32,000 nucleotides of DNA, taken from assembly GCA_041659405.1 (NCBI GenBank), contig JBAZYK010000005.1:1796-33795 (forward strand). Direction: 5' to 3'. Of this stretch, positions 637-21,507 are shown one piece after another (within the stretch, counting starts at the first letter, position 1; every line of letters starts with the position of its first letter). The DNA comes from Candidatus Altimarinota bacterium. Its GTDB lineage: Bacteria > Patescibacteriota > Gracilibacteria > UBA1369. The position numbers and the translations under genes are program-made. The notes beneath the pieces were generated by a model. It saw only the letters and a list, made by a program, of their open reading frames with translations. It was not told the origin of the DNA and searched no databases.

Positions 637-3495
637 TTACGCTTTTCCTGTTTTTCCGGCTTTGCGTCTTAAGAAAAATGCAATTGGCAGTGTTAACAAC
701 AAATAATAACTTTCCGGGCCGGTTTGGGTAATTTCCAGTGGCAATGGCTCAGAAGAAGCCGCACCATGCAAAACGGTTGTAGTTGTTTTTGTTGTGCCGG
801 TTGCAGTTGCCGGCGTGGTTATGTTTACAGATACTGTTTCTGAAATTGCTTGATTAATAACTCCCGCAGCTGCTGGCGTTGTTGTGTTTGTGGAAACCGT
901 TTCTGAAATTGCCTGATTGATAAATCCTGTGGAAACCGGCGCAGAAGCGCTTGAAGAAAATCCTGTTTCAGCTGCAATTGATCCACTTTGCTCTGGGGCA
1001 ACCGGAGGTGTTGGGGCCGATGGGGCCTCTGTGTTGTCTACAACCGGTGCAGAAATTGAATCCGAACCTGACCCTAGGCCGCCATCTGATAATGGATCTG
1101 TCGGTGGATTTTTGGGCAAACTTGCTGAACCACTATATGGAACATAATCTGTTGGAGTAGTTGTTTTGGTGGCTGTTGGTTGGTTTTGAGCAATAGGCTC
1201 AACAATTGGCGTACCAGTTGTGGTTGGCTGGGTGTCTGGTGGTGCATCTGTCTTCTTTGGCTCATCTGTGGCGGCAGGGGCAACCGTTTTTTCAGCTGCC
1301 ACTGGCGACGAACAGATCGCAAATCCTCCCATTAACTGGCCATCGCTAACAGTTGTTAAATCAATGTTTGGAAGACTACCGGTGGTTGTTCCAGTGCTTG
1401 TCCCGCTGCCGGAACTTGTTGTTACTTGATCCGGATTTCCAAGAACCGTTTCAAGCGAAGTTGTAATTGGCTGTGGATTGCGCTGAGAATCTGTACAGGC
1501 TGTGCTTGAAGTTGGCGGAATAATGTTTCCATCGCGGACCAAAGTATTTCTTAAATCGGCAATTTCACGACTTAAAGTAGGTCTTAAAGAAGTCGTTTTT
1601 TGATCTGTGCTTAAAATTAAATCAACCAGTAACTGTTGTTTCAATCGATCACTACCGCTTGCAATTCTGCAGCTTTGATCGGCAATTTTATTTGATATAT
1701 TATCGTAAACGGCTTGCCATTGTTGATTTCTGTAGGCATCCTGAATGTCTTTATCCTGCTGCTGACAACTATTGAGAGTTGCAGGAGTTGTGGTCAAACC
1801 CGTGCCCCCGGTTGTAGTTGTTGTTGAGCCTGTTGTGGTCGTGGTCGTTCTTGTGTTTGAAGTCGATGTTGAAACCGCCCCTCCGGTTGTTAGTGTTGAT
1901 CCTCCTGTTGCTGTAGTTGATCCTCCTGTTGTTGTCGTTGGTGGAGTTACGCCCACTGTTGTCGATGTTGTTCCTCCTCCTGTTGTTAAATTTGTATTGG
2001 GAGTTGTTGAACTTGTGGTTGTGGTCGTAGAGCTTGTTGTGGTTGTTCCTCCTGTTGTAGGAGTTGTGGTTGGTGTTGTTGAGCTTGTGCTTGCCGTACA
2101 AGCATCATTCCAAGTTTTAAGATGAGAAATTGTTGAAGAGCTCAAAATATATTTATCCTGATTTGTGTAAAGTTCGCTTATTAAGAAGCAGTCATTTGGA
2201 TTGATTCGACTACAAACCGGAGCGCTTGGCGTGGATGAGGTTGATGATCCGCCCGTTGTTGGATTTGGCGTGGTTGAGCTGGAAGTTGGTCCTCCTACTG
2301 TTAAATTCGGAGATCCGGCCACTGCGGATGATGGTGGGGTTCCTCCTACTGTTAAATTCGGAGATCTTACTGCTGCAGATGTTGATGGTGTTCCTCCTAC
2401 TGTCATTGCCGGAGAACCTACTATTGTTGCCGACGGTGATCCTCCTACTGCGTTATTACCAACGGGTGCCGCATTATTCAATACTCCACTATTTGCTGCC
2501 GGAGCTTCCCTTAAATCTGGGATTTGGTTGCTGACTGCAGCCGCGGGCGTGTTACTAATACTTGGGGCTACTGCATTTGAAACCTGATTAGCTGCAGGAT
2601 TATTTGCAATGACTTGAGCGTTATTAGCAACCGCTGCCGCGCCTTGATTAGAAATAGGGGCCGGAGATGGATAATAAACATTGGTGTAATCTGGCTGAGA
2701 TAGCCCCGGTGAAACTTGGTTTATCAAGTTACTAACGTTAGGGGCTGCTGCAGGTGAACGTAAGGCGGAAAGATCAGCGCCAAAATTATTTCCGGAAGTT
2801 GTGGTACTTGTACTTGCTTTTGGAGCATATGTATCGATAGCGCAAGTTTGAGGTACCGCTGTGATATCACCCTTTAAGTTACTGCTTGATCTAAAATAAA
2901 TTGCTGCAGCCACTCCACCTAAAACCAGCAAAACTCCACCAACAATCAAAGCGATTTTCAGATGAGACATTGGTTGGTTTTCCGGTGGCGATGTGAGTTC
3001 GGTTAAACTTAAATCGGTCGCATAAAAGTCTGATGACAATTGCGCGGGATTTTTAACCGGCACTTCTGCCTGTGGCTGACCTGTACCTTTTTGAAGATTG
3101 GTAAAAGAAGTCGCTTCGACTGCCGGTTTTGGAGCTGTGGCTGTTTCCGGTACAGCTTCTTTTTTGACTGGAGCGGTGGCTGGTTCCGGTTCCACCACGG
3201 TTTCTTTTTCAGCAGTTTCAGTCGCAGCCGGAGTTTCCGGTGCAGCCGGAGTTATAGACTCAAGCGAGATTGGTTTCGGCTTTACTTCTTCAGGTGCTTT
3301 TTCCGGCAAAGCTTGAACAACCGGCATAGAAGTTTCCGCTTTTCCATCAACATTAAAAAAAGTCGAAGTATCATTTGCTACGCTGCTTTTAGGTTCGGCG
3401 CTTGGCACGGAAGCAAGACCCGCATCGCCCGTATTTGGGCTTGTGCCGCCCGTGCCCATGCCGTTTCCGGCATTTAAGTTTGTGTCTGGTTCCAT
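637..3495 (-). CDS. Thr/Ser/Pro-rich mucin-like surface protein with an N-proximal TM helix and a C-terminal tripartite sorting signal (952 aa)
   Basis: 952-aa ORF. TM helix LKIALIVGGVLLVLGGVAAAIYF at about aa 190. Long T/S/G/P tracts (TTTTSSTTTTTSSTT...). A Cys-bracketed non-repetitive domain (CQQQDKDIQDAYRNQQW...TAC). The C-terminus reads ...LEITQTGPESYYLLLTLPIAFFLRRKAGKTGKA, i.e. motif, hydrophobic stretch, basic tail. Confidence 0.8.
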   Translation of the reverse strand: MEPDTNLNAGNGMGTGGTSPNTGDAGLASVPSAEPKSSVANDTSTFFNVDGKAETSMPVVQALPEKAPEEVKPKPISLESITPAAPETPAATETAEKETVVEPEPATAPVKKEAVPETATAPKPAVEATSFTNLQKGTGQPQAEVPVKNPAQLSSDFYATDLSLTELTSPPENQPMSHLKIALIVGGVLLVLGGVAAAIYFRSSSNLKGDITAVPQTCAIDTYAPKASTSTTTSGNNFGADLSALRSPAAAPNVSNLINQVSPGLSQPDYTNVYYPSPAPISNQGAAAVANNAQVIANNPAANQVSNAVAPSISNTPAAAVSNQIPDLREAPAANSGVLNNAAPVGNNAVGGSPSATIVGSPAMTVGGTPSTSAAVRSPNLTVGGTPPSSAVAGSPNLTVGGPTSSSTTPNPTTGGSSTSSTPSAPVCSRINPNDCFLISELYTNQDKYILSSSTISHLKTWNDACTASTSSTTPTTTPTTGGTTTTSSTTTTTSSTTPNTNLTTGGGTTSTTVGVTPPTTTTGGSTTATGGSTLTTGGAVSTSTSNTRTTTTTTGSTTTTTGGTGLTTTPATLNSCQQQDKDIQDAYRNQQWQAVYDNISNKIADQSCRIASGSDRLKQQLLVDLILSTDQKTTSLRPTLSREIADLRNTLVRDGNIIPPTSSTACTDSQRNPQPITTSLETVLGNPDQVTTSSGSGTSTGTTTGSLPNIDLTTVSDGQLMGGFAICSSPVAAEKTVAPAATDEPKKTDAPPDTQPTTTGTPIVEPIAQNQPTATKTTTPTDYVPYSGSASLPKNPPTDPLSDGGLGSGSDSISAPVVDNTEAPSAPTPPVAPEQSGSIAAETGFSSSASAPVSTGFINQAISETVSTNTTTPAAAGVINQAISETVSVNITTPATATGTTKTTTTVLHGAASSEPLPLEITQTGPESYYLLLTLPIAFFLRRKAGKTGKA
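800..925 (-). repeat. Two in-frame ~63-bp tandem repeats inside the 952-aa CDS
   Basis: ctgtttctgaaattgcttgattaataa (from ~834) recurs as ccgtttctgaaattgcctgattgataa (from ~897), period 63 bp. At protein level: FINQAISETVSTNTTTPAAAG / VINQAISETVSVNITTPATA. Confidence 0.8.
2285..2455 (-). repeat. About four in-frame 51/48-bp tandem repeats inside the 952-aa CDS
   Basis: cctcctactg starts at 2291, 2342, 2393 and 2441. cctcctactgttaaattcggagatc is identical at 2291 and 2342. At protein level: (G/R)SPNLTVGGTPPSSAVA-type 17-aa units. Confidence 0.85.
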
Positions 3496-3729: not shown

Positions 3730-6033
3730 TTATTGGATCTGACCTATCACTAGAATATTCATAGTGAAAGTATCAATAACATTTTGGCTGTCGGAAACTT
3801 CCAACTTAACCGGATAACTTCCCGGAGTTGCAAAAGTATGAGTTGGTTTTCTGGTCTTTGAACTTTGACCATCTCCAAAATCCCAGCTGTATTTGGCGAT
3901 AGTTCCGGTGGAACAACGTGGATCCAATTCAATTGTTAATGGAGCCGGGCCGGCACTTGCAGTTGGCTCAAAGCAGGCCTTTAATGGCACAGGTCTGACG
4001 TTAATAGGAGTCGTAACGATTGATTTGGAATTATCGGATGCAATAGCTGTAACTTTGACGTTAAAAGTTCCAATTTGGGTGTATTTGTAAGTCACCTTGG
4101 AAACATCAATGCGTTTTGGGCTGCCATCGCCGAAGTCCCATTCATAACTGACGATTTGACCACTTGGATAGCTTGATCCGGAAGCGTCAAAAGTTATGGT
4201 CAATGGCACAACGCCTTCAACCACATCTGCAGTCACGCGGGCCTGTAATCCTTGTGGCAAAACTTTTACCACTAAAAGTGTACTGGCTGTTTTATTTTGA
4301 GAATCAACCACCATAAGAGTGGCGTTAAAAGTTCCTGCATCTTTATAAACGTAAGTAGACTGCTGGCCTGCCGCGTCATTAACACCATCACCGTTAAAAT
4401 CCCATTTATAATCTACGATGCTGCCATTGGCTTCTTTGCTTCCTGAGCCATCAAACTGGACCTGAAACGGTACAGTCCCGGTAATATAGCCGTCGGTTGG
4501 TTTAGCTTGAGCCGGAATAGTTGTAAATGAAGCAAGTGCCGCGCCGACAGGTGTTTCTAAAGTTATTTTTTGGCCGGCAGTTCCGGTTGTGCCTTTGTCA
4601 TCCGTAGCTGTTAAGTTTACTTCATAAGTTCCCGCAGTTTTGTAAGTATGAGTTGCTGTTCTGGTACTTGCTTTTGGAGTCTGATCGCCAAAATCCCATT
4701 CATATTTAACAATTTTCCGAGTCGGACTGGTTGAGTTTTCGCCCAAAAAAGTATATTGAGTTCCGGTGTAATAGTGACCATCTGTTGTTGGAATACTGAT
4801 CACCGCCGTTGGAACATTGGCCCCGGCAACTGTAATATCTTTAGAAACAACAGTTGATTGAAGCGTGTTATCTGTAATGCGTAAATTAACCGTGTAAGTT
4901 CCGGCCTGATCAAAAGTGTGTTCAATTTTTGCACCTTTGCCGTCATTGAAAACGTTTTTATTGTTAAAATCCCATTCATAGGACTGGATCTCCCCTGCCG
5001 GAGCGGAAGATGCCGAAGCATCAAATTTAACCACCAATGGCGCGGGGCCGCTATCCGGAGTCGCCGTAAAATCGGCATTCAATTTAATATTGGAAATCGT
5101 AACTATGTCCGTAAAACTTTGTGATGTTTCTTCACCGGTTGTTTTATCCTTTAGATTAACCGTTAAATTTACATCAAAGCGGCCGTTGTTTCTGCCTTTA
5201 TCTTTATAAGTATGAGATGGAGATTGAACCGTAGAATTTTCACCATCGCCAAAATCCCACAAGAAAGATAAAATTTCATATTTCTGAGTATTGATCGGTA
5301 ATTTTGTACCATCAAATTTAATTAAAATTGGAGCGGTTAAACCAAGCGGAGTCGCAGGATCTGTAACAATTGAACTGGTTGTTGCTTTTGGAACAGCAAC
5401 TTTTTTGGAACTTAAGAAAAGATAAGTTCCAACCCAAACGGAAACCAAAAAGATCAGTAAAAATCCGGAAACGGCGGCCTGTTTGAAACCTTTGTTTTTT
5501 GATTCTTTATCGTCTTTTCTGGCCATGGCCGTACGGAACAGACCAATGATTGCAACAATGAAAAGCGCAATCGAGAAAAACCCAAAAACCACACTCACCA
5601 AACTGATTAAAGTGTTGATGAAAGTTGCTGTATCCAACCCTAAAGCCTTCGCCATTGGGTTATCGCCATTTGTTCCTGTTTGAGCCACGAAAATGAGTAC
5701 CAACAAAATTAAAAGTGCAATTGAACATCCAAAAAAGCCTAAAACGCCATAAATAACTTTTCGTGTATTTGGAGGACGTCTAACCGGAGCAGCTGTGCCA
5801 GGGGTAACCGGACGTGGCTGTTGGTTGAGCGGCTGATTAATTGGTGGCTTTGAAGCCGGTTGCGCGCTTGCCTGCAGTGGAGCCTGAGTTTGTGGCTGGG
5901 CAGGAGCCGGCATTGCGCCTTGCGCCTGTGCGGGAGCCATAGGCTGAACCGAAATTGGCGTAGGTTGCACCGGTGGCGTAGCGGCCGGTTGTCCCTGATT
6001 TTGTGGATTTTGGTTTGAGTTTGGTGTATCCAT
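3730..6033 (-). CDS. Polytopic membrane protein with a P/Q-rich N-terminus and six PKD-like domains (767 aa)
   Basis: Three hydrophobic helices (VIYGVLGFFGCSIALLILLVLIFVA; FINTLISLVSVVFGFFSIALFIVAIIGLF; AAVSGFLLIFLVSVWVGTYLFL). Six repeats follow, each carrying the PKD signature WDFGDG or a variant (FLWDFGDGENS, YEWDFNNKN, YEWDFGDQT, YKWDFNGDG, YEWDFGDGS, YSWDFGDGQ). Confidence 0.9.
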   Translation of the reverse strand: MDTPNSNQNPQNQGQPAATPPVQPTPISVQPMAPAQAQGAMPAPAQPQTQAPLQASAQPASKPPINQPLNQQPRPVTPGTAAPVRRPPNTRKVIYGVLGFFGCSIALLILLVLIFVAQTGTNGDNPMAKALGLDTATFINTLISLVSVVFGFFSIALFIVAIIGLFRTAMARKDDKESKNKGFKQAAVSGFLLIFLVSVWVGTYLFLSSKKVAVPKATTSSIVTDPATPLGLTAPILIKFDGTKLPINTQKYEILSFLWDFGDGENSTVQSPSHTYKDKGRNNGRFDVNLTVNLKDKTTGEETSQSFTDIVTISNIKLNADFTATPDSGPAPLVVKFDASASSAPAGEIQSYEWDFNNKNVFNDGKGAKIEHTFDQAGTYTVNLRITDNTLQSTVVSKDITVAGANVPTAVISIPTTDGHYYTGTQYTFLGENSTSPTRKIVKYEWDFGDQTPKASTRTATHTYKTAGTYEVNLTATDDKGTTGTAGQKITLETPVGAALASFTTIPAQAKPTDGYITGTVPFQVQFDGSGSKEANGSIVDYKWDFNGDGVNDAAGQQSTYVYKDAGTFNATLMVVDSQNKTASTLLVVKVLPQGLQARVTADVVEGVVPLTITFDASGSSYPSGQIVSYEWDFGDGSPKRIDVSKVTYKYTQIGTFNVKVTAIASDNSKSIVTTPINVRPVPLKACFEPTASAGPAPLTIELDPRCSTGTIAKYSWDFGDGQSSKTRKPTHTFATPGSYPVKLEVSDSQNVIDTFTMNILVIGQIQ

Positions 6034-6060: not shown

Positions 6061-9000
6061 TTATTTTTGCTTCTTTGATTTAAGCACTCTCATGCTAACA
6101 AAGAGTATACCAAATCCGGCTATAGTTACAAGCACGCCCGGAATTTCATTGGAATTGGTTCCGGCAAAAATATCTACTCCAAGTTGACTCTTGATTGGAG
6201 CGTTCGGTACATCAAAAACAATGTCTTTAATAACGGAACTTTTAGTTCCCTTATCATCAACAACCGTAAGTTTTACGCTGTCCTGGCCGTAGCTTTTGAA
6301 AAATTGAGTTGTCCATGTTCCGGGAGCTGTTGTTTTGTAATCTTCATCATCATCTTTAATGCCATTTCCATTGGAATCGTAATAAATATTTTTATCAATA
6401 ATGTAAGATTTGATCGGCCCGCGGGAATCGCTAAAATTAAAAATTACCGTTCCACTATCCCCTTGCAGATGGATTCTGTTATCGGTAACACTTGGCGCTG
6501 GAGCACTGGTTAAACGCGCCTCAAGTTTTTGCAAAGTTTGTGTTGGCTGTGTTGGTTGCTGGATTGGAGTAACCACAGGCACAGGCTTAACTATCTGCTG
6601 AGTTACTTGTTGGGTTTTTGTAACTACAAGCACAGGAGCTTTTATATTCACAAAATTTATAACGCTTGCCTGATTTCCCTGGTCGTCCGCAACAACTAAT
6701 TTAGCCCTGAAAACTCCGTAATCCGGATATTCATAAGTTGGAGCCTGCTCGGTAGAATCAAGATCATTGTCTTTAATACCGTCGCCGTTAGCATCGACAG
6801 CAAGATTAAAATCCCAGCTGTATTTTGCAAGGTTTGCACCATTTACCGCATCGGCAGTGGAATTATTGGTAAATTGGATTTTTTTGCCATCCAGCTGCTG
6901 TGAGGTGAAAGCGGCAACCGGTGGCGCAGTCTTGGCATCAACATACATCATAACCGGATCGGAAATTGATTCCGCACCATTGTTGTCGATTACCTTTAAT
7001 TTAACTTTGACGCCATCTTTATATGGCTTGGTGTAAACATAACTGACGTTTGGTTTGTTGTAATCATTAGTCAAAACATTGTCGGCAAAACCGTTGCCTT
7101 CAAAATCCCAAATGTAGGTAGCAATACTGCCGTTGGCATCCGGATCGGTTGAACTGGATGAAAAACTGACGGTATCACCGACCATAACATTGGTACGATC
7201 AACGTTTAATTTGGCAACCGGAGACTTATTAGGCCCGTTTGTTACTGCCAGTTTTGGAATCATGCTGTCATCAAGACCATCCTGAGTATTAAAAGTTTGA
7301 TTATCGTTATCGGTCGCCATTACGGCAAACCCATAAGTCTTTTTTTGGCCTTCTACTCCATTTGTACCAATTACGATAGTAGTATTTGGAGATTCGCTAA
7401 GCTGCAATCCTTTTTGATCTTCCGGATTATCAATATCGTAATACCACCAGCGATAGCTAACGATTTTGCCATCCGGATCATTTGCGCCGTTGGCGGTTAC
7501 GTTAACATTAACCGGAGTTGTAGTTGAAGTTCCTGCTGGAATTGCCGTTAAGCCCTGAACAACCGGTGGCTGTGTCGCTACATTAATATGGATTTCATCA
7601 ATAGGACTAACCTGTGTAGCGTCATCCTGATTGGTTACTTTTAGAGTTATTTTATAGTAAGGTTTATCCTTTGGTGTTAATTCGGTAAAGGTATGAGTAA
7701 CCTGTTTTTTGGTACTTAAAGTGCCATCACCAAGATCCCAACTGTAATTCAGTTTCTTGCCTGTGCCATCAATATTGATTGATTTGCCGGCATCGAAAAC
7801 GAATTGAGTTTTTCGATTTGCGGTAATTGTTGAGCTTGTATCACTTAGATCGTTACCATCCTGAGTTAACGAAATGGCCGCCACAGGTATATTATCGGAA
7901 GCGATAAATACTTTTCTAATAGTATTGTTTTGATTGTTGTTATTATCAAAAACCATTAATTTTGCGATAAAACTTCCGGATTTATTATAAGTATGTTTAA
8001 CAGTGAAAGGACTTGCGGTAATGGATCCATTTTCTTTTGCTCCATCACCGGTATCCAATTCATAAGAAACACCATTAAGACTGCTCATGACAAAATTTAC
8101 ATCAACGCTGCCGGCATTTAACTTGGCAGTAATTGGTTTTCCATCATCTCCCCAACCTACATCAAGATCATTATCAACGGTGATTCTTTGTTCCTGAGTT
8201 GTGACCTTTGCAATTTCCGCCGGATCACGAACACTTAAAGTGATGGTGTACTTACCTTTATTAAGTCTTACTTTTATTTTGGAAAGATTTTTGTCGGTAC
8301 TATAATCTTTAAAGAAGAGTACGCAGTCGTTTTCGGTTTTGCCATTTATATAAGTACAATTTCCCGGAGCGGTGCTGAATTCCCATCTATAGGCAATGTC
8401 TTCGCTGCTATCCGGATCATAACTTTTGGCACCATCCAAAATGTAAGTATTTGGTTGTGATTTGTCCGAATTATCGAAACTGAACTGGGCGACCGGTGGC
8501 TTTGAAACCACATGGATACGTACAACTGTCGAAGCATCATTTGAACCGTCACTAACACTTAGTGAAACATCATAATTGCCGGGCTCTTTAAAAGTATATT
8601 TAAGGGTATCAACATTTTTGGCCTCCGGAGGAGTTAGATCAATGCTGTTACCGCCCTTTGTGGCCAATTGCATAATTTTCCAGTCATAGGTTTTAACTTG
8701 ACTGTTTGCGCTGGCGGAAGCTGATCCATCGAATGTGGCCTGATCATTTAATTTTAATTCATTACCGTGAGTAACATTAATGCGGGCTGCAATCGAAGAA
8801 ACAACAATGTTGAAAATCTTGCGATCTGTAATGCCACGATCATCCGTTACTTCCAAAGTAACACGATAAGAACCTTCTTTTATGTATTTAACTGTCTGTA
8901 CCTGAGAAATAGTATCCGGCGGTCCTTCCACGGTATTCTTAGTATTGGATTTGTCACCAAAATCCCATTTTACTTTGGCAACCGGACTATTCTTAATGGT

Positions 9001-10824
9001 TGGATCATTAAAAGGTAAACCATTTCCGGTTTTAGTTTCACGTCCATCAAGGCTGATTCCGGTTTTGGCTTCTTCCGTAGTAATGGAAAGATCCTGAATG
9101 GAACTAAGTGAAATACCATTATTATCATATTTTGACATCCAGAAAGATTTTCCATTAACGGTTGCCTGTAAATTAATTCTGGATGATGGTGGCTTAACTG
9201 TAACCGTAGTGTAAACAATTCCATCAACTGGTTTTTTAGGGTTGTTTTGATCTTCCGGAGCGGCCACTTTTAATTTGACCACATAAGTTCCCGGATTTTG
9301 ATAAATACATTGACTCACAGTACCGGTTTTTTCACCACTGTTATCACCACAACTCCAGGTGAAATTATTATCCGGAATTGTATTGTTATTTGGATCAAGA
9401 CTCTTTAAAGCATCCAAATTAACAACCAGTGGAGCGTTTCCCTGGCTAATATCCGCATGAATTGCACTATAGACAAATTGCAGGTCCTTAACTTTTTCAT
9501 AAAGAGAAGACATATCTTTAACAATTTGGAGCATGGCGGCGTTATCCGGCACACTCTTAAGTGTTGGTAAAGCAGGACTTAAATCCGCTGCATGAACCAC
9601 GTCCACGAAAACCAAAGCTAATCCCTTTAAAATGGAATCCGCCTGACTGTTTAATGAAACGACATTTCCACGAATTATTTCAGATTGAAGATCATTTTTG
9701 TTTACCAATGTTTCAAGATCTCCGGTAACGTTATCAAAACTGGTCTGAATCTCGGGCAAATCGCTGGCCTGCTTGATGCGGGCGGAAAGTTCCGTTAATT
9801 GGCTATAGGCTTTAATAACAGCCTGGGCAAAATCCTGATTATTGGCGCCCATTAAACCGGTTTGTTCAACCGAACCCGGGGCCTGACTTGCCTGATCCAA
9901 AAAGGTATCCGCACCGGCTTCATTTTTAATGTCGTTGGTGTACGTACTGTAATTGGTTTTATACCAAAATTGTTCCCAATAAGTGTTTGGGTCTTTTTCA
10001 CTTGCAACCTCATCGATGGCTTTATCGGAAATCTTTAAATATTTATCATAAACCAGCAACATGTGCTGGGCTTTTTCCGATACCTGACTTAAAGATCCGG
10101 CTTTGACCAGTATGTTATTTAAAATATTCTTTTTATTCTGAAGAGTACTCTTTAATGTTTGTGGTGAGGTGATTTGTTTTTCCAAATCAACATTGATAAG
10201 CGTCAGCACATCTGTACGAATTTCGGAATAATTTTGATACGCGGTAAGAAAATCACGCGCAATCTGCTGAACGGCAATAGCGGCATAATTGAAAAATGCG
10301 CGTCGATCGGAAGTTGAAACTGTTCCGCCAGTGGCAGCTCCGTTAAGTGTATTGTTTTCTTTTCCGCTTGGAGCCTGCAAAACCGTGTTAACAATGGCGA
10401 AAGATCCCATAATAATCAAAAGACCCGTAACGGCATAGGTGATGGACTTTTTACCAACCTCGGTTTTATCTTCCTTGCCCATGGCTGTTACATAAAGCAC
10501 ACCTCCGTAAACAATTACCAAAACGGCAATTAAACCCAAAAAGCCTAGCGCAAAATTGGTTACATTACGAATGTAGTCTCGGGCAGTTGGGGCTTGCGTC
10601 AATGCCGGGGCGTAGCCGGCCGTGTCCGGAGCGGTAAGTCCGCCCTGAAAATTGGTAAAAGTGGTTTGTTCTCCACCGCCGCAAGAAAGAATGCCTTTGG
10701 TGGCATCACTTACGCTGCCGCAGAAATCAAACGCACCTGCCTGCATTGGCATGGTTAAGCTTAAAATCATGCCTAAAGTAAGCATGATTTCCTTTATTTT
10801 TGTGTTTTTCAGGATATTATTCAT
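6061..10824 (-). CDS. Giant surface protein: signal peptide, one VirB2/TrbC-like pilin module, a helical region, ~10 PKD-like domains and a C-terminal TM anchor (1587 aa)
   Basis: Signal-like N-terminus (...LSLTMPMQAGA). Pilin-type module FALGFLGLIAVLVIVYGGVLYVTAMGKEDKTEVGKKSITYAVTGLLIIMGSFAIVNTVL. PKD signatures (VKWDFGDKS, YSWDLGDGT, YIWDFEGNG, YSWDFNLAV and others). Acidic Ca-loop-like DANGDGIKDNDLD and DSNGNGIKDDDED. C-terminal VLVTIAGFGILFVSMRVLKSKKQK. Confidence 0.9.
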   Translation of the reverse strand: MNNILKNTKIKEIMLTLGMILSLTMPMQAGAFDFCGSVSDATKGILSCGGGEQTTFTNFQGGLTAPDTAGYAPALTQAPTARDYIRNVTNFALGFLGLIAVLVIVYGGVLYVTAMGKEDKTEVGKKSITYAVTGLLIIMGSFAIVNTVLQAPSGKENNTLNGAATGGTVSTSDRRAFFNYAAIAVQQIARDFLTAYQNYSEIRTDVLTLINVDLEKQITSPQTLKSTLQNKKNILNNILVKAGSLSQVSEKAQHMLLVYDKYLKISDKAIDEVASEKDPNTYWEQFWYKTNYSTYTNDIKNEAGADTFLDQASQAPGSVEQTGLMGANNQDFAQAVIKAYSQLTELSARIKQASDLPEIQTSFDNVTGDLETLVNKNDLQSEIIRGNVVSLNSQADSILKGLALVFVDVVHAADLSPALPTLKSVPDNAAMLQIVKDMSSLYEKVKDLQFVYSAIHADISQGNAPLVVNLDALKSLDPNNNTIPDNNFTWSCGDNSGEKTGTVSQCIYQNPGTYVVKLKVAAPEDQNNPKKPVDGIVYTTVTVKPPSSRINLQATVNGKSFWMSKYDNNGISLSSIQDLSITTEEAKTGISLDGRETKTGNGLPFNDPTIKNSPVAKVKWDFGDKSNTKNTVEGPPDTISQVQTVKYIKEGSYRVTLEVTDDRGITDRKIFNIVVSSIAARINVTHGNELKLNDQATFDGSASASANSQVKTYDWKIMQLATKGGNSIDLTPPEAKNVDTLKYTFKEPGNYDVSLSVSDGSNDASTVVRIHVVSKPPVAQFSFDNSDKSQPNTYILDGAKSYDPDSSEDIAYRWEFSTAPGNCTYINGKTENDCVLFFKDYSTDKNLSKIKVRLNKGKYTITLSVRDPAEIAKVTTQEQRITVDNDLDVGWGDDGKPITAKLNAGSVDVNFVMSSLNGVSYELDTGDGAKENGSITASPFTVKHTYNKSGSFIAKLMVFDNNNNQNNTIRKVFIASDNIPVAAISLTQDGNDLSDTSSTITANRKTQFVFDAGKSINIDGTGKKLNYSWDLGDGTLSTKKQVTHTFTELTPKDKPYYKITLKVTNQDDATQVSPIDEIHINVATQPPVVQGLTAIPAGTSTTTPVNVNVTANGANDPDGKIVSYRWWYYDIDNPEDQKGLQLSESPNTTIVIGTNGVEGQKKTYGFAVMATDNDNQTFNTQDGLDDSMIPKLAVTNGPNKSPVAKLNVDRTNVMVGDTVSFSSSSTDPDANGSIATYIWDFEGNGFADNVLTNDYNKPNVSYVYTKPYKDGVKVKLKVIDNNGAESISDPVMMYVDAKTAPPVAAFTSQQLDGKKIQFTNNSTADAVNGANLAKYSWDFNLAVDANGDGIKDNDLDSTEQAPTYEYPDYGVFRAKLVVADDQGNQASVINFVNIKAPVLVVTKTQQVTQQIVKPVPVVTPIQQPTQPTQTLQKLEARLTSAPAPSVTDNRIHLQGDSGTVIFNFSDSRGPIKSYIIDKNIYYDSNGNGIKDDDEDYKTTAPGTWTTQFFKSYGQDSVKLTVVDDKGTKSSVIKDIVFDVPNAPIKSQLGVDIFAGTNSNEIPGVLVTIAGFGILFVSMRVLKSKKQK

Positions 10825-10885: not shown

Positions 10886-11914
10886 TTAAAGACCCGGGTT
10901 TGTGGGCAAACTTGCCGGCGAACTTGAGCCGGCTTTTTCGGAGCCGGTGGTCGGTTGCAGGGTTACAACGGTGTTCACAATTCCAAAAGCAGCCATGGCC
11001 AATAAAAGACCTATGGTAGCCCCAATAAAGACTTTCTTGGCTTTAGCGGTGTTATCTTCTTTACCAAAAGCAATAACATAAAGGTAACCTCCATAAATGA
11101 ACATAATTGCTGCGACAGTTGCGGCGAATCCGGAAATAAAATTGGTTAATTTTACCACAAATTGCGCGGCGACTACGGTATTTGGCAGTGTTTTTCCCTG
11201 ACTTGGGAAAAGTACATCTTTGATCGCAAATTCGGAAATTCCAATCACAATCAGACCTACAACGGCCCACATAATCTGTTTTTTAACCTTACCCTGAACT
11301 TCTTCATTGCCGGCGCCAATAACCAAACGGAAACCTCCAATTACAATCATCAAAATTGCCAAAGCGGCGGCAAAATATTCCATAAAACTGTAGAAGCCTT
11401 TGATGGTTTCGGTCCCCTGTTTGGCCGCATCTAAAAGCTCCGCCTGGCTGCGATAAATCTCGCCCTGAGCGCCCCAAAATACTTTTACAACCTGATCGGC
11501 AATAATAATAACGAGCAGACCAATAATCGCATATTTAAGGTTTTCTTTTTGTTTATCCGCGATCTGATCAACCTGGCGGCCCGAGGTAATCAGACGAATT
11601 CCGGAAACAATAATCATAAAAATGGCAATAGTGCCCATTACATATTTTGCAAAATCAATCGCATACCAAACGGCGCTTGTGATGTTGCTTGCGCCCGATT
11701 CAATCGAGGCGTTGGCATTGGCGTTGGTGTTGTAAGTGGGAAGTCCAATATTGTTTTCGAGTTGATTTAAAACTCCACCCGGAGACTGAGCATTGGTTTG
11801 GGCATTTGCCGGAACTGTCAGGGTCAAAACAAGGCTGGCCAAAATCAAAAATCCACACAGTGGAATAACTGTTTCTTTTAGAATTTCGCTAATTTTTTGG
11901 ACGAACTTTTTCAT
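10886..11914 (-). CDS. Secreted/membrane protein made of three tandem VirB2/TrbC-like pilin modules (342 aa)
   Basis: Signal peptide (...LTLTVPANAQ). Three modules of hydrophobic helix, G-rich turn, charged loop, hydrophobic helix: IAIFMIIVSGIRLITSGRQVDQIADKQKENLKYAIIGLLVIIIA; LAILMIVIGGFRLVIGAGNEEVQGKVKKQIMWAVVGLIVIGIS; VAAIMFIYGGYLYVIAFGKEDNTAKAKKVFIGATIGLLLAMAAFGIVNTVV. Confidence 0.85.
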   Translation of the reverse strand: MKKFVQKISEILKETVIPLCGFLILASLVLTLTVPANAQTNAQSPGGVLNQLENNIGLPTYNTNANANASIESGASNITSAVWYAIDFAKYVMGTIAIFMIIVSGIRLITSGRQVDQIADKQKENLKYAIIGLLVIIIADQVVKVFWGAQGEIYRSQAELLDAAKQGTETIKGFYSFMEYFAAALAILMIVIGGFRLVIGAGNEEVQGKVKKQIMWAVVGLIVIGISEFAIKDVLFPSQGKTLPNTVVAAQFVVKLTNFISGFAATVAAIMFIYGGYLYVIAFGKEDNTAKAKKVFIGATIGLLLAMAAFGIVNTVVTLQPTTGSEKAGSSSPASLPTNPGL

Positions 11915-11934
11915 TTTTATTTTAAAATTTATTT

Positions 11935-12984
11935 TTATTGACCCGGCAGAGTCCCGCCGGTTGGTTGTGTCACTTGTCCGTTGCCGCTGGTGCCAAAATT
12001 TCCGGAAATAATTGTGCTCACAATGGCAAAAGATCCATACATGATAATAATTCCAACAAGAGCTGAAACAATGATTCTTTTGGCTTTCCCCTGAGTTTCT
12101 TCATTGCCCGCGGAGGCAATATACATAATGCCGCCCGCAACCAGAGCTATGATGGCGATAGGGCTAACGATACTTAAAACCATGTTGGTGAATCCCACCA
12201 ATTCACTTACGCCCTGAGCGGGATTGAATGATGGCGCCGCTCCTCCAACAGTGGGGTAACGTGTAACATCAACTTTGTAGAAGACGTTGTTGATAATCGG
12301 ATCGGCAATAATAATCAAGAATAAGCCCAGCGCGCCATAAGCAAGGTTCTTTTTATCCAGGGCAATTTTGTCTTCCGCGCTGCCCATTGCAATCATGCGC
12401 ATGCCACTTCTGACAACGAAAAAAACCGAAATCGCGCCAATAAGATATTTGATGAAAGTTACGATAAATTTGGCTTTTTGGTCAAAAATAGTCACCGAAC
12501 GGATAATCGCATTTGGGTCTTTTAAAAAGCCTCCCTGCGTACAGGCAAGTCCGGAAAAGTCCTTACCGTTTTCACAATAAACCGAGAAAATACGGGCAAG
12601 ATCTCCGGAAAACCCAACAACCGCCAAGCCGATTATGCCGTAAATGATGGTCGATCTTTGCTTGGTATAAACTTCTTCATTTCCGCCGCCAATAACCATT
12701 CTGATGCCGGCATAGACGATTAAGCCTACAGCAACAGCTCCCAAAAGATAGCGCACGTTTTGGATAACGCTTAAGGCTAAGCTAAAAACTTGAGCGGAAG
12801 CACTGCCTTGCGCCGGAGCCTGCAAGCCGCTGTAGCCCGGCGTGGAAATACTTGGCAAAGGCAAAGTGGTGGTGGTCTTTGCGTTTTCGGCTAAAGCTAA
12901 AGGCATACTCGCAGTTAATACAACCGCTAAAGTTGCGCTAAAAATTGCCAATTTGACCAAGAATTTGTTTATTTTTTTGAGCAT
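11935..12984 (-). CDS. Paralogous protein with three tandem VirB2/TrbC-like pilin modules (349 aa)
   Basis: Signal peptide (...ASMPLALAEN). Modules: VAVGLIVYAGIRMVIGGGNEEVYTKQRSTIIYGIIGLAVVGFS; ISVFFVVRSGMRMIAMGSAEDKIALDKKNLAYGALGLFLIIIA; IAIIALVAGGIMYIASAGNEETQGKAKRIIVSALVGIIIMYGSFAIVSTII. It has the same architecture as the gene 20 nt downstream. Confidence 0.85.
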   Translation of the reverse strand: MLKKINKFLVKLAIFSATLAVVLTASMPLALAENAKTTTTLPLPSISTPGYSGLQAPAQGSASAQVFSLALSVIQNVRYLLGAVAVGLIVYAGIRMVIGGGNEEVYTKQRSTIIYGIIGLAVVGFSGDLARIFSVYCENGKDFSGLACTQGGFLKDPNAIIRSVTIFDQKAKFIVTFIKYLIGAISVFFVVRSGMRMIAMGSAEDKIALDKKNLAYGALGLFLIIIADPIINNVFYKVDVTRYPTVGGAAPSFNPAQGVSELVGFTNMVLSIVSPIAIIALVAGGIMYIASAGNEETQGKAKRIIVSALVGIIIMYGSFAIVSTIISGNFGTSGNGQVTQPTGGTLPGQ

Positions 12985-13014: not shown

Positions 13015-13042
13015 ATTATACCAGACAATGGGTCTTTGTGAA
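13015..13042 (-). promoter_or_regulatory. Sigma70-type promoter with an extended -10, driving the pilin/PKD operon
   Basis: Minus strand reads TTCACA-N16-(TGG)TATAAT. The -10 is consensus with an upstream TG. It lies about 30 nt upstream of the ATG at 12984. Confidence 0.6.
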
Positions 13043-13059
13043 AGGCAAAGAGCGCGAAA

Positions 13060-13244
13060 CTTGCTCACAGCTTTTTCAGGTGGTTTTCCGGAGGGAATGG
13101 CTTCTTGGCGAACGCTTCGCCTGTTCGCTGCGGCTACCATGTACGCCTCCGCGAAGGTCTCGCATCATGATGCTCGACCGGCTGCGCTCGCAATGTCGCC
13201 AAGAAGCCATTCCCTCCGGAAACTTGGAGAAACCTGTGGGCAAG
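13060..13244 (+). ncRNA. Candidate structured RNA or palindromic element: long G+C-rich hairpin with a perfect 27-bp stem (13085..13111 / 13196..13222) around an 84-nt core
   Basis: TTTCCGGAGGGAATGGCTTCTTGGCGA is exactly complementary to TCGCCAAGAAGCCATTCCCTCCGGAAA. An outer 11-bp helix pairs 13060..13070 with 13234..13244, and partial pairing bridges the two. Every non-Watson-Crick pair is G-U only when read on the + strand. The region is visibly more G+C-rich than its flanks. No known RNA family was recognised. Confidence 0.4.
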
Positions 13245-13347
13245 GACGTAGTATTTGCAAAACGCTATTTTCTCAAAATCTTTGTATATTTAACTTGTTT
13301 TTAGTAGGATGGGCCCCTGATTGCGCTTGGATTCTAATAAATTATTT

Positions 13348-14771: not shown

Positions 14772-15500
14772 ATGAACAAATCCAACTTATTCACGCTTTT
14801 TTTGGCTGGAGTATTGGTTGTCATCGGCTCGGAACTTTTGGTGGATGATTATTTAAAAACGCCCGTTTTAAAAAATTCTCAAGCGGATGTTTTGGATGTA
14901 GGGGCGGCGACCACTCAGGGAAGCGCAAACGCGCAGACTAAAGGAACGCAAGCTCTTTCGACCTTAGCGCAAACCGCGAAAACCGCGAATGTGCAAAATG
15001 CCCAGGTTGCTCCTGCGCAAACTACTACCGGGCAAATCGCTCAGATTTCCGCTTTGCAAAACCAAGAGGCCGGTGGCCCGCAGATCACCTTTTCCATGAT
15101 AATAAAGGCGGGTTTTGCTCAAACTACCCTGCAGCGTGCCCCATTTACCGGCATGCTTTTTGATACGATCGATCTTCAAAACTCTTTGTCCGTACCGGTT
15201 TTGCAGCAATATCTGTTAAAAAACAATGTGGCGCGGGCGGCGACTTTCTATGAAATCCATCTTCAAAATAAAGAAATGGCCGGCGAGGTTTTCAGCTTAA
15301 TAAAGCAGAAAGCTGCTGCTCAAGCCGGAGCCCTTTTAAACGCTTCAAACGGTTTTGGCGAAGGGTCGTTTTATATCAATTATTTAGATAATACAAATCA
15401 TGCATTTTTAGTTGTCAAAAAGGGATCGAGTGTGTATGCTCTGACTTACGTGAAGGACTACCATCCTTATATCGCCAAGCTTATTCAATTATTACCTTAA
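14772..15500 (+). CDS. Hypothetical N-terminally anchored protein inserted between nusG and rplK (242 aa)
   Basis: ORF starts 2 nt after the nusG stop. It has an N-terminal hydrophobic helix ([18 protein letters not shown]), a Q/A/T-rich linker and a C-terminal globular part. No known motif. Confidence 0.7.
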
Positions 15501-20913: not shown

Positions 20914-21507
20914 ATGAAAAACAAAAATCTTTTATATGCATTAGGCGGAGTCGTTGGTGTCGCAGCCATTGCCGTAGTCATTATGCTTTCCCTAAACAGC
21001 GGAAGCAATTTAAAGGGAATGTTACCCGGCGGTTATAAGGATGATACATTTGGTGGACGACTACCATCCGCAACTTCAGATTTAAAGCTTGCACCTACTA
21101 AAGAGGTAACAAATAATCCCGTTTCGAAGACACTAGGCCCTGTAATCACTAACCTGATTATAAGTAAGGATCCATTTGATTTAAGAAGTGGAAGCGTGAC
21201 TTTTAGTGCAGACATAAAAAATGACAATAAAAATGTAGCTTTTATGGTTTATGGTTATAAAAAAGGAACTACTACTTTTGCTTGTGAAGATGGTGCCCCA
21301 GGTCAGGGGAACTTGTTAACTAGATCCAATGGAAAAGTTACCTGCACGTGGAATGGTAGAGATGAAAATGGAAATTTTGTTACACCTGGAAATTATTCTC
21401 TTAATGTGCAAGTTTTCACAGGAGGCGCAGTATGGTCCTTCGATAAATCCAAAGATTTCAAAATTATTGATTCAAGGATCAATGCACCAAAAGTCTTAAT
21501 AAAATAA
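20914..21507 (+). CDS. Small secreted or anchored protein with one FlgD-Ig-like domain (197 aa)
   Basis: N-terminal helix LLYALGGVVGVAAIAVVIMLSL. The domain carries TWNGRDENGNFVTPGNYSLNVQV, the W(N/D)G(R/K)D..G..v..G.Y pattern typical of FlgD Ig-like/FlgD_ig-type domains. The same motif recurs in the 847-aa protein at 29002..31545. Confidence 0.8.
   Translation: MKNKNLLYALGGVVGVAAIAVVIMLSLNSGSNLKGMLPGGYKDDTFGGRLPSATSDLKLAPTKEVTNNPVSKTLGPVITNLIISKDPFDLRSGSVTFSADIKNDNKNVAFMVYGYKKGTTTFACEDGAPGQGNLLTRSNGKVTCTWNGRDENGNFVTPGNYSLNVQVFTGGAVWSFDKSKDFKIIDSRINAPKVLIK

Follow-up and report, generated by a model that had tools for sequence, protein, structure and literature searches.

The pilins of the T-pilus, F-pilus, and R388 pilus (VirB2, TrbC, and TraA) carry one hairpin per chain, some of them being cyclised head to tail, and are encoded in virB/trb operons. 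In bacteria belonging to the candidate phyla radiation (CPR), loci for type IV secretion systems (T4SSs) contain VirB2-like pilin genes in arrays of 2-11 divergent members; in Ca. Southlakia epibionticum, the array has six genes, lies in the T4SS locus, and is essential (PMC10633639, PMC12102498, PMC12857230). A survey of CPR genomes that called VirB2-like pilins with the Pfam model PF18895 (T4SS_pilin) placed pilin genes near virB4 in 1,135 of 1,948 assemblies and not near it in the other 813 (PMC12102498). This survey is the main functional link between the PF18895 family and T4SSs, proximity to virB4 being a common feature of the family and not a strict one. Also, VirB2-like hairpins assemble with the charged loop facing the lumen and both ends on the outside, in Gram-positive bacteria too, VirB2-like pili having been proposed only recently for their T4SSs, and in PrgF of pCF10 acid and base residues of the loop matter (bioRxiv 10.64898/2025.12.18.695078). 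Here, we analyze a stretch of 32,000 nucleotides from a Candidatus Altimarinota bacterium, an uncultured CPR organism of Peregrinibacteria type (contig JBAZYK010000005.1, positions 1,796 to 33,795; hereafter the window), where two adjacent genes of the minus strand, A (window 11935-12984, 349 aa) and B (10886-11914, 342 aa), each encode three hairpins of this same domain family within one chain. An earlier sequence-only reading of the window had proposed both open reading frames (ORFs), and both are found, each with an ATG start and a TAA stop.

A comparison with the CPR pilin arrays shows the same domain family, a Sec signal peptide ahead of a charged-loop hairpin, and several divergent paralogues side by side, in both cases in host-dependent monoderm CPR bacteria. 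However, the arrays consist of separate genes for small proteins of ~100-130 aa with one hairpin each, whereas here the hairpins are joined 3 + 3 in a conserved internal-internal-terminal order (the module types are described below), and an extra hairpin copy is fused to a 1500-aa PKD adhesin encoded by the next gene, G. Moreover, those arrays belong to T4SS loci, whereas the cassette described here adjoins secE-nusG, and no large P-loop ATPase is encoded within 10 kb of it.

In A and B alike, an N-terminal hydrophobic segment ending in an AxA motif corresponds to the cleavable-looking signal peptide of the sequence-only reading. For A, this is residues 1-32 (12889-12984, LALA followed by E, hydrophobic segment 5-32, the motif being read from the translation), and for B residues 1-38 (11801-11914, ANA followed by Q, hydrophobic segment 11-38, AlphaFold2 helix 2-33). 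Hydropathy shows six more hydrophobic segments in each protein, arranged in three modules of ~69 aa with a helix, a charged loop, and a second helix. These modules span residues 66-133 (A1, 12586-12789), 167-235 (A2, 12280-12486), and 258-326 (A3, 12007-12213) of A, and residues 76-147 (B1, 11474-11689), 167-236 (B2, 11207-11416), and 249-317 (B3, 10964-11170) of B, all of them on the minus strand. The AlphaFold2 model of B, built from a 93-sequence alignment, consists of the signal helix and three long helical hairpins (helices 75-110 and 115-147 in B1, 157-199 and 204-235 in B2, and 246-281 and 286-316 in B3), with a predicted local distance difference test score (pLDDT) of 80.8, and B3 modelled alone gives a helical hairpin of 37 + 33 residues with a pLDDT of 87.4. 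The three helix-loop-helix modules per protein are confirmed, the confidence of the predicted three-hairpin fold being good. The loop, which had been described as short and K-rich, is indeed charged but not simply K-rich, being zwitterionic (G-x-E-E...K-x-K-K, with about 3 K/R and 2-3 D/E), and it recalls the acid and base loop of PrgF, also a small two-helix hairpin of a monoderm envelope. Between the signal peptide and the first module of B, residues 39-80 (window ~11675-11800) are strongly conserved (…LP-F-T-GHA-AS-E-GASNITSAI…), with a sequon-like N-I-T-S motif at the start of helix 1.

Scanned singly against PF18895 (gathering cut-off 26.6 bits), all seven modules, the six of A and B and the one of G (G1), score above the cut-off, at 28.8-41.0 bits, being 37.6 bits (E 2.4e-9) for A1, 29.2 for A2, 28.8 for A3, 36.6 for B1, 41.0 for B2, 35.2 for B3, and 40.9 for G1. 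The whole proteins reach 70.4 bits (A, E 1.4e-19), 84.3 bits (B, E 6.2e-24), and 33.8 bits (G). Membership of every module in the CPR T4SS_pilin family is solid. Also, because PF18895 matches three stretches in each of A and B, all modules pass singly, and profile-profile E-values between module classes run from 5e-9 to 2e-28, the three-module repeats are far beyond chance.

The step from this family to the characterised VirB2/TrbC pilins is weaker, and the similarity appears borderline. PF04956 (TrbC/VirB2, cut-off 27.9 bits) is the second-best family for five of the seven modules, through the mature-pilin part of its profile, although single modules reach just 15.5-18.4 bits (E 0.003-0.02); among whole proteins, B is above the cut-off (31.7 bits) and A below it (24.5 bits). 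The proposal of VirB2/TrbC-like modules, each to be searched on its own, stands for PF18895 in every case; for PF04956, the single modules stay below the cut-off and whole B alone exceeds it. An hhalign comparison of a 59-module alignment with 30 VirB2 sequences, whose seed is 98% identical to Agrobacterium VirB2, aligned 48 columns with the helix-loop-helix in the correct register and gave E 0.099, the template being narrow (Neff 3.2). Like VirB2, TrbC, and TraA, the modules follow a signal peptide and have two long hydrophobic helices, a short charged loop, predicted outside termini, and a weak profile similarity in the correct register; their sequence similarity to these pilins, though, is below the per-domain cut-off, and no match of structure reached significance. 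The best NCBIfam match for A, B, and G is NF045849 (the pilin-like protein Mbov_0395 of a Mycoplasma integrative and conjugative element), at 24-35 bits and below its cut-off of 40. PrgF-type and Mbov_0395 pilin-like proteins are single hairpins in conjugation operons, unlike the proteins described here. A search of PHROGs gave nothing relevant.

On the other hand, A and B could be polytopic membrane proteins unrelated to pilins, such as transporters or channels, with repeats that mimic them. This would be in line with some database auto-labels of homologues (cytochrome bd subunit II, antiporter, and others, where other databases say "pilin") and with weak matches to Cation_efflux and other membrane families. 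However, the best of these, Cation_efflux, stays at 15 bits against a cut-off of 26.6, and no transporter or other family reaches its threshold in the Pfam scan, whereas all seven modules exceed the curated pilin-family cut-off. Moreover, nothing matched the compact transporter-like bundle that the sequence-only reading had named as its possible refutation: a Foldseek search of the whole B model against the Protein Data Bank (PDB) returned nothing below E 0.9, with no polytopic bundle or transporter. The module also occurs fused to PKD adhesins and as single signal-peptide proteins of ~100 aa in arrays. This explanation is largely refuted, and we consider it highly improbable. Regarding the type IV pilins, these have a single N-terminal helix and a prepilin-peptidase site (G followed by F/M-xxxE), neither of which is present here; the N-termini of A and B are classical AxA signal peptides, unlike the class III signal of type IV pilins, and no N-methylation or type IV pilin Pfam family is matched by A or B.

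B is 100% identical to a deposited 342-aa hypothetical protein from a metagenome-assembled genome (MAG) of Candidatus Gracilibacteria, and it has more than 150 homologues of 290-380 aa, 119 of the 120 among those listed having three modules. A locus scan with one genome per GTDB species gave 48 loci, labelled Peregrinibacteria, Peribacteria, or Gracilibacteria, and together with contig look-ups, 43 related loci and the window constitute 44 non-duplicate sources that hold both tri-pilin genes. An A orthologue with three modules is found in 44 of 44, and in all of these sources A and B alike have three hairpins per chain. The order of a three-module gene, a second three-module gene, and, directly downstream, a PKD protein of ~1500 aa with one module is kept in 38 of the 44, spanning 31-87% identity. 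In the six exceptions, two contigs stop early, one looks chimeric, two have another gene downstream, and one has the giant gene cut at the contig end. At locus L007 (CAWEAT010000016.1, with the label Alphaproteobacteria), proteobacterial-looking high-GC sequence comes after the tri-pilin pair; this contig is probably chimeric or its MAG contaminated, and the case may be the source of odd homologue labels such as "pilin [Pseudomonadota bacterium]". Conservation extends to the flank secE-nusG-unknown-rplK-rplA, and the cassette is always at the same chromosomal site. It is therefore a fixed part of the chromosome that is inherited vertically, not a mobile element.

The seven positional classes of modules (A1-A3, B1-B3, and G1) were compared by pairwise identity, scores of class hidden Markov models (HMMs), and hhalign. 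The classes are conserved across species, with 39-62% identity within a class and 22-42% between classes. A3, B3, and G1 constitute one terminal (gamma) type with the motifs TNF-SGF, YGGYLYV, KAKK, and AFAIVNT, the identity between G1 and B3 being 46% (hhalign E 1.6e-28), and in A, B, and G the gamma-type module comes last among the pilin modules. The modules A1, A2, B1, and B2 are of internal types, and their reciprocal best partners are A1-B2 and A2-B1, with agreement of identity, HMM scores, and hhalign. In 300 neighbor-joining bootstraps, run on capped distances, the terminal/internal split is recovered in 76-93%, and the swapped A1-B2/A2-B1 pairing is weak, at 0-31%. A collinear duplication of a triple ancestor (A1 with B1 and A2 with B2) was rejected, as the three comparisons pair the modules otherwise and none of the 300 bootstraps recovers it. 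Because the collinear pairing is never recovered and the partners look swapped, A and B, which share 22% identity (13-36% among the modules of the pair), are not plain duplicates of a triple ancestor. Then, the tandem paralogs of the sequence-only reading are indeed a paralogous pair, but not simple collinear duplicates: the order of the internal modules looks swapped between them, and either separate fusions of three ancestral pilin types or a later module exchange would account for their origin.

When a profile built from the seven window modules was run against 1.84 billion representative proteins, it found 52,349 clusters at E ≤ 1e-3, 4,787 at ≤ 1e-10, and 195 at ≤ 1e-30. Among the top 150 representatives, our own module HMM counts 2-8 modules per chain (the count of matched stretches reaching 10 for one protein), the N-terminus is signal-peptide-like in all, and linkers go down to 6-8 aa. 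In this sample, which is biased to relatives of the query, the module order (i, internal; G, terminal) is iiG in 87 proteins, iiiG in 9, and iiiiiiiG, iiiiiG, and iiiiG once each. This suggests a polar rule in which internal-type modules followed by one terminal-type module dominate. The protein with eight modules sits in a cassette of an eight-module gene, a one-module gene, a gene with one module and PKD domains, and a PKD gene. Elsewhere in the CPR, poly-pilins with 6-7 modules are found within runs of single-module pilin genes, which are the arrays known from earlier CPR work (PMC12102498). This fits an origin by fusion of array neighbours, which would thus be recurrent. At the loci L057 (9005-14262), L058 (8321-12663), and L056, such proteins stand amid at least five single-module genes of 106-135 aa, and one poly-pilin array locus can encode more than 14 hairpins. 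In the four longer poly-pilin contexts, no Pfam-annotated T4SS ATPase is found within ~10 kb. The T4SS_pilin domain family and the "pilin" labels in databases are already known. Multi-hairpin T4SS pilins, adhesin-fused hairpins, and this cassette are not described in the searchable full-text literature, so that the claim of an undescribed triple-module architecture holds as far as that literature goes; among sequences, however, multi-module proteins are not rare, 2-8 modules being present in the top 150 representatives.

The linkers between the modules have conserved lengths, being 19-23 and 12-22 aa in B and 20-39 and 16-23 aa in A. In those of B, some Gly, Glu, Phe, and Pro residues do not vary or hardly vary, and AlphaFold2 models these linkers as ordered (pLDDT ~76-85). 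Linker 1 of A (residues 134-166, 12487-12585, minus strand) carries a Cys pair and the motif GGFLKDPNAI. Among the 44 orthologues of A, this linker has two Cys residues in 30, none in 14, and one in 0, and Cys is almost absent elsewhere in the mature chain. This pattern of either none or two is a disulfide signature, so the linker would probably be extracytoplasmic, that is, a folded connector with a disulfide. Moreover, a cleaved signal peptide followed by three hairpins, an even number of hydrophobic helices, predicts a topology in which the N-terminus, the two linkers, and the C-terminus would be outside and the three charged loops cytoplasmic, just as in three separate pilins. A comparable arrangement exists in A-/V-type ATPases, where the ring-building helical hairpin of the proteolipid (c/K) subunits is duplicated or triplicated in one chain. 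The analogy is an architectural one, both termini lying on one side beside the neighboring protomer and so permitting concatenation, whereas loop chemistry and function are unlike those of the poly-pilins, and the Pfam scan gave no ATP-synt_C match in A or B.

The same linkers bear on whether A and B are polyproteins, cut at the linkers after membrane insertion to yield equal amounts of six distinct pilins with one hairpin each. In every hairpin, the second helix would run inside to outside as a signal peptide does, so external cleavage is topologically possible, and the conserved linker motifs could in principle be recognition sites. However, no AxA-type site is present after the second helices, where the consensus reads ...VFFGExGEV and ...FPxQG; the fixed linker lengths and the covarying Cys pair suggest folded connectors, as do the ordered linkers of the model; and a protease site would hardly fit in the linkers of 6-8 aa that other poly-pilins have. 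Also, G shows that the hairpin can work fused to a large partner. Based on the conserved lengths, the invariant residues, the Cys pair, and the missing AxA-type sites, the chains of A and B most likely stay uncut. Cleavage seems quite improbable, and it looks the least likely of the three mechanisms that the sequence-only reading had offered, the others being a pre-assembled trimer and a six-helix membrane platform.

Downstream of the pair, the minus strand continues head to tail with G, K, and a gene for a 952-aa protein, the five ORFs each ending in TAA and the gaps from A onward being 20, 61, 27, and 234 nt. G (6061-10824, 1587 aa) has a signal peptide, one gamma-type module (G1, residues 81-149, 10378-10584), ~8 PKD domains (PKD_4 matches 8 stretches), and a C-terminal hydrophobic helix (transmembrane segment 1560-1583) with a basic KSKKQK tail (6064-6147), either a membrane anchor or a sorting signal. 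In most orthologues of G, the C-terminus starts with an [A/G]-N-[ILV]-[FL]-like motif, and ~10 residues farther on a hydrophobic helix leads into a tail rich in K/R, a layout that resembles a tripartite C-terminal sorting signal. K (3730-6033, 767 aa), the second PKD protein, has a P/Q-rich N-terminus, no signal peptide, and transmembrane segments at 91-123, 135-173, and 183-210, that is, a transmembrane helix before a degenerate pilin-like hairpin (residues 140-201, 5431-5616, loop RKDDKESKNK), followed by 6 PKD domains (PKD_4 matches 6 stretches). The score of this hairpin against the module HMM is weak (10.8 bits), and K orthologues of two other species (loci L010 and L014) score as one clear module. 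Hence, the motif is not limited to two genes as first supposed, a seventh copy being present in G and a degenerate eighth in K, and two large adhesin-like proteins appear to use the same hairpin as their module for membrane insertion or assembly.

Adhesin-bearing minor subunits are known from other pili, for example the VirB5 tip proteins of T4SSs and the large minor pilins in type IV pili. G and K, which join a pilin hairpin to PKD repeats, would be functionally analogous, although VirB5 is not a fusion to a VirB2 hairpin. A link to the Pam pili through the NCBIfam family PamR, which scores 37.9 bits against an Ig-like stretch of K (cut-off 300), was rejected: the Pam pili of CPR bacteria (PamA/PamB) are an unrelated system of Ig-like pilins assembled by donor-strand exchange (bioRxiv 10.64898/2026.03.03.709456), and A and B are all-helical in the AlphaFold2 prediction. 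The 952-aa protein (637-3495), last of the run, consists of S/T/P-rich low-complexity sequence, has a single transmembrane helix in its interior, and ends in a hydrophobic helix and a basic tail, its C-terminus being similar to that of G (TGPESYYLLLTLPIAFFLRRKAGKTGKA). It has no Pfam or NCBIfam match, it is poorly conserved, with related proteins in few loci only, and its place in the system is uncertain. Inside this ORF, on the plus strand, ARAGORN calls a 99-nt tRNA-Arg(ccg) at 3107-3205, where Rfam finds no tRNA; the call is probably a false positive.

We propose that A and B are uncleaved poly-pilins that would co-assemble with hairpin-anchored PKD adhesins in one surface structure, a reading to which we assign a probability of about 0.5. 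Co-assembly with G and K is suggested by homology and gene linkage, namely the conserved linkage, the terminal-type hairpin shared with G, and the recurrence of cassettes that hold both poly-pilins and pilin-PKD proteins. According to this proposal, A and B would be exported by Sec as single chains, each with three VirB2-like hairpins joined by short structured extracellular linkers. After removal of the signal peptide, the chain would sit in the membrane with its N- and C-termini and linkers out and its loops in the cytoplasm. The hairpins of A and B would then pack side by side in the fashion of VirB2 pilins, and also with the terminal-type hairpin of G and the degenerate hairpin of K, to give a hetero-oligomeric surface structure displaying PKD adhesins with which other cells would be contacted. 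Being fused covalently, the hairpins would have a set stoichiometry and neighbor order, in contrast to paralogous pilins that in other CPR bacteria are encoded as arrays of separate genes.

For this structure, we lean slightly toward a short pilus or stalk rather than a membrane platform, based on the T4SS context of the family in other CPR bacteria and on helices that extend well beyond the thickness of a bilayer. In pilus geometry, the outer face holds the termini, and from one protomer of a strand to the next it is ~2-2.5 nm, a spacing that linkers of 7-30 residues could bridge. Several observations weigh against the proposal. The similarity to experimentally characterised VirB2 is not significant (the hhalign E of 0.099), profile searches with the 7- and 59-module alignments gave no PDB sequence matches, and Foldseek of the single-module model returned generic hairpins alone (chemoreceptors, MORC2, and designed coils), the fold being too plain to discriminate. 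The AlphaFold2 model of B has a predicted template modelling score (pTM) of only 0.59. Moreover, no large P-loop ATPase (VirB4, VirD4) is present within 10 kb in the 48 genome-collection loci and the window, and no recognisable T4SS gene is found among the scanned proteins within 10 kb, a search confined to the flanks; the one Walker-A protein of at least 350 aa near the cassettes is the product of an unrelated AAA_14 gene in the window. Finally, G carries the C-terminal membrane helix with its basic tail besides the hairpin, and if this helix is a permanent anchor, both ends of G would be held in the membrane, a situation that suits a platform more than it does a long pilus.

Such a platform would consist of A and B as six-helix membrane proteins that are never extruded, their hairpins oligomerising in the bilayer with those of G and K as a scaffold or raft by which the giant PKD adhesins would be anchored and clustered, with no T4SS involved. 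Besides the lack of a VirB4-like ATPase near the cassette in the 48 loci and the second membrane helix of G, the extra transmembrane helix of K before its degenerate hairpin together with its lack of a signal peptide, the fixed and vertically inherited position of the cassette, and the cost of pulling a poly-pilin of 7-8 hairpins from the membrane in one piece would favor it. However, helices of 30-40 residues are longer than a bilayer demands and resemble those of pilin hairpins, the family is homologous to pilins in T4SS loci of other CPR bacteria, and the distance to virB4 is not decisive, as 813 of 1,948 assemblies show the same (PMC12102498). We regard the platform as somewhat unlikely, and the surface structure built from poly-pilins as the preferred interpretation.

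Regarding the surroundings of the cassette, a promoter-like site lies ~30 nt upstream of A (13015-13042, minus strand), with TTCACA, a 16-nt spacer, TG, and TATAAT, matching 11 of 12 consensus positions; it is a call by consensus match alone. The five genes diverge from secE-nusG-(242-aa gene)-rplK-DUF5671-rplA. An alternative genetic code (Gracilibacteria code 25), raised by the taxon label, was considered and is not needed, since all five cassette genes stop at TAA and the ribosomal-protein and nusG ORFs match Pfam under table 11. Between the A promoter and an ORF at 13321, a GC-rich element of ~200 nt (13045-13250) contains a perfect 23-bp inverted repeat (13089-13111 and 13198-13220) and folds with extreme stability on either strand (minimum free energy -113.8 kcal/mol, z -8.2). 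No Rfam family matches it, it has no copy elsewhere in the window or in any of 58 related loci, and it could be a strain-specific insertion, an element resembling a miniature inverted-repeat transposable element (MITE), or an unknown RNA. The 242-aa gene (14772-15500, plus strand) between nusG and rplK has no Pfam or NCBIfam match and keeps its position in 34 of 50 sources (49 related loci and the window), being a lineage-specific insertion in the otherwise universal secE-nusG-rplKA cluster; the DUF5671 gene is likewise inserted between rplK and rplA. Further cell-envelope proteins of this CPR genome are an 847-aa protein with three S-layer homology (SLH) repeats and FlgD-Ig-like domains (29002-31545, minus strand) and a 197-aa protein with a FlgD_ig domain (20914-21507, plus strand).

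In the one CPR bacterium open to genetics, VirB2-like pilin arrays are essential, and the fusions described here bear on the structure that such pilins make and on the reason for their many paralogues. They are natural experiments which, following Rosetta-stone logic, imply that different paralogues adjoin in one heteromeric assembly in a fixed order, and G shows that a terminal-type hairpin can carry a huge adhesin. A bolder possibility, which we hold to be unlikely, is a distinct CPR surface organelle built from VirB2-type hairpins with no neighboring T4SS, in which polar poly-pilins, with one terminal-type hairpin after a varying number of internal-type ones, would co-polymerise with terminal-hairpin adhesins. 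If true, the order of protomers would be written in the polypeptide and not left to self-sorting, and the fusions would offer a Rosetta-stone map of which paralogues are neighbors in the essential pilin arrays of Saccharibacteria. The cultivated Patescibacteria named in the CPR survey include no Peregrinibacteria-type organism (PMC12102498). For these organisms, the fixed 3 + 3 + 1 cassette, PKD proteins included, makes a good candidate host-contact apparatus.

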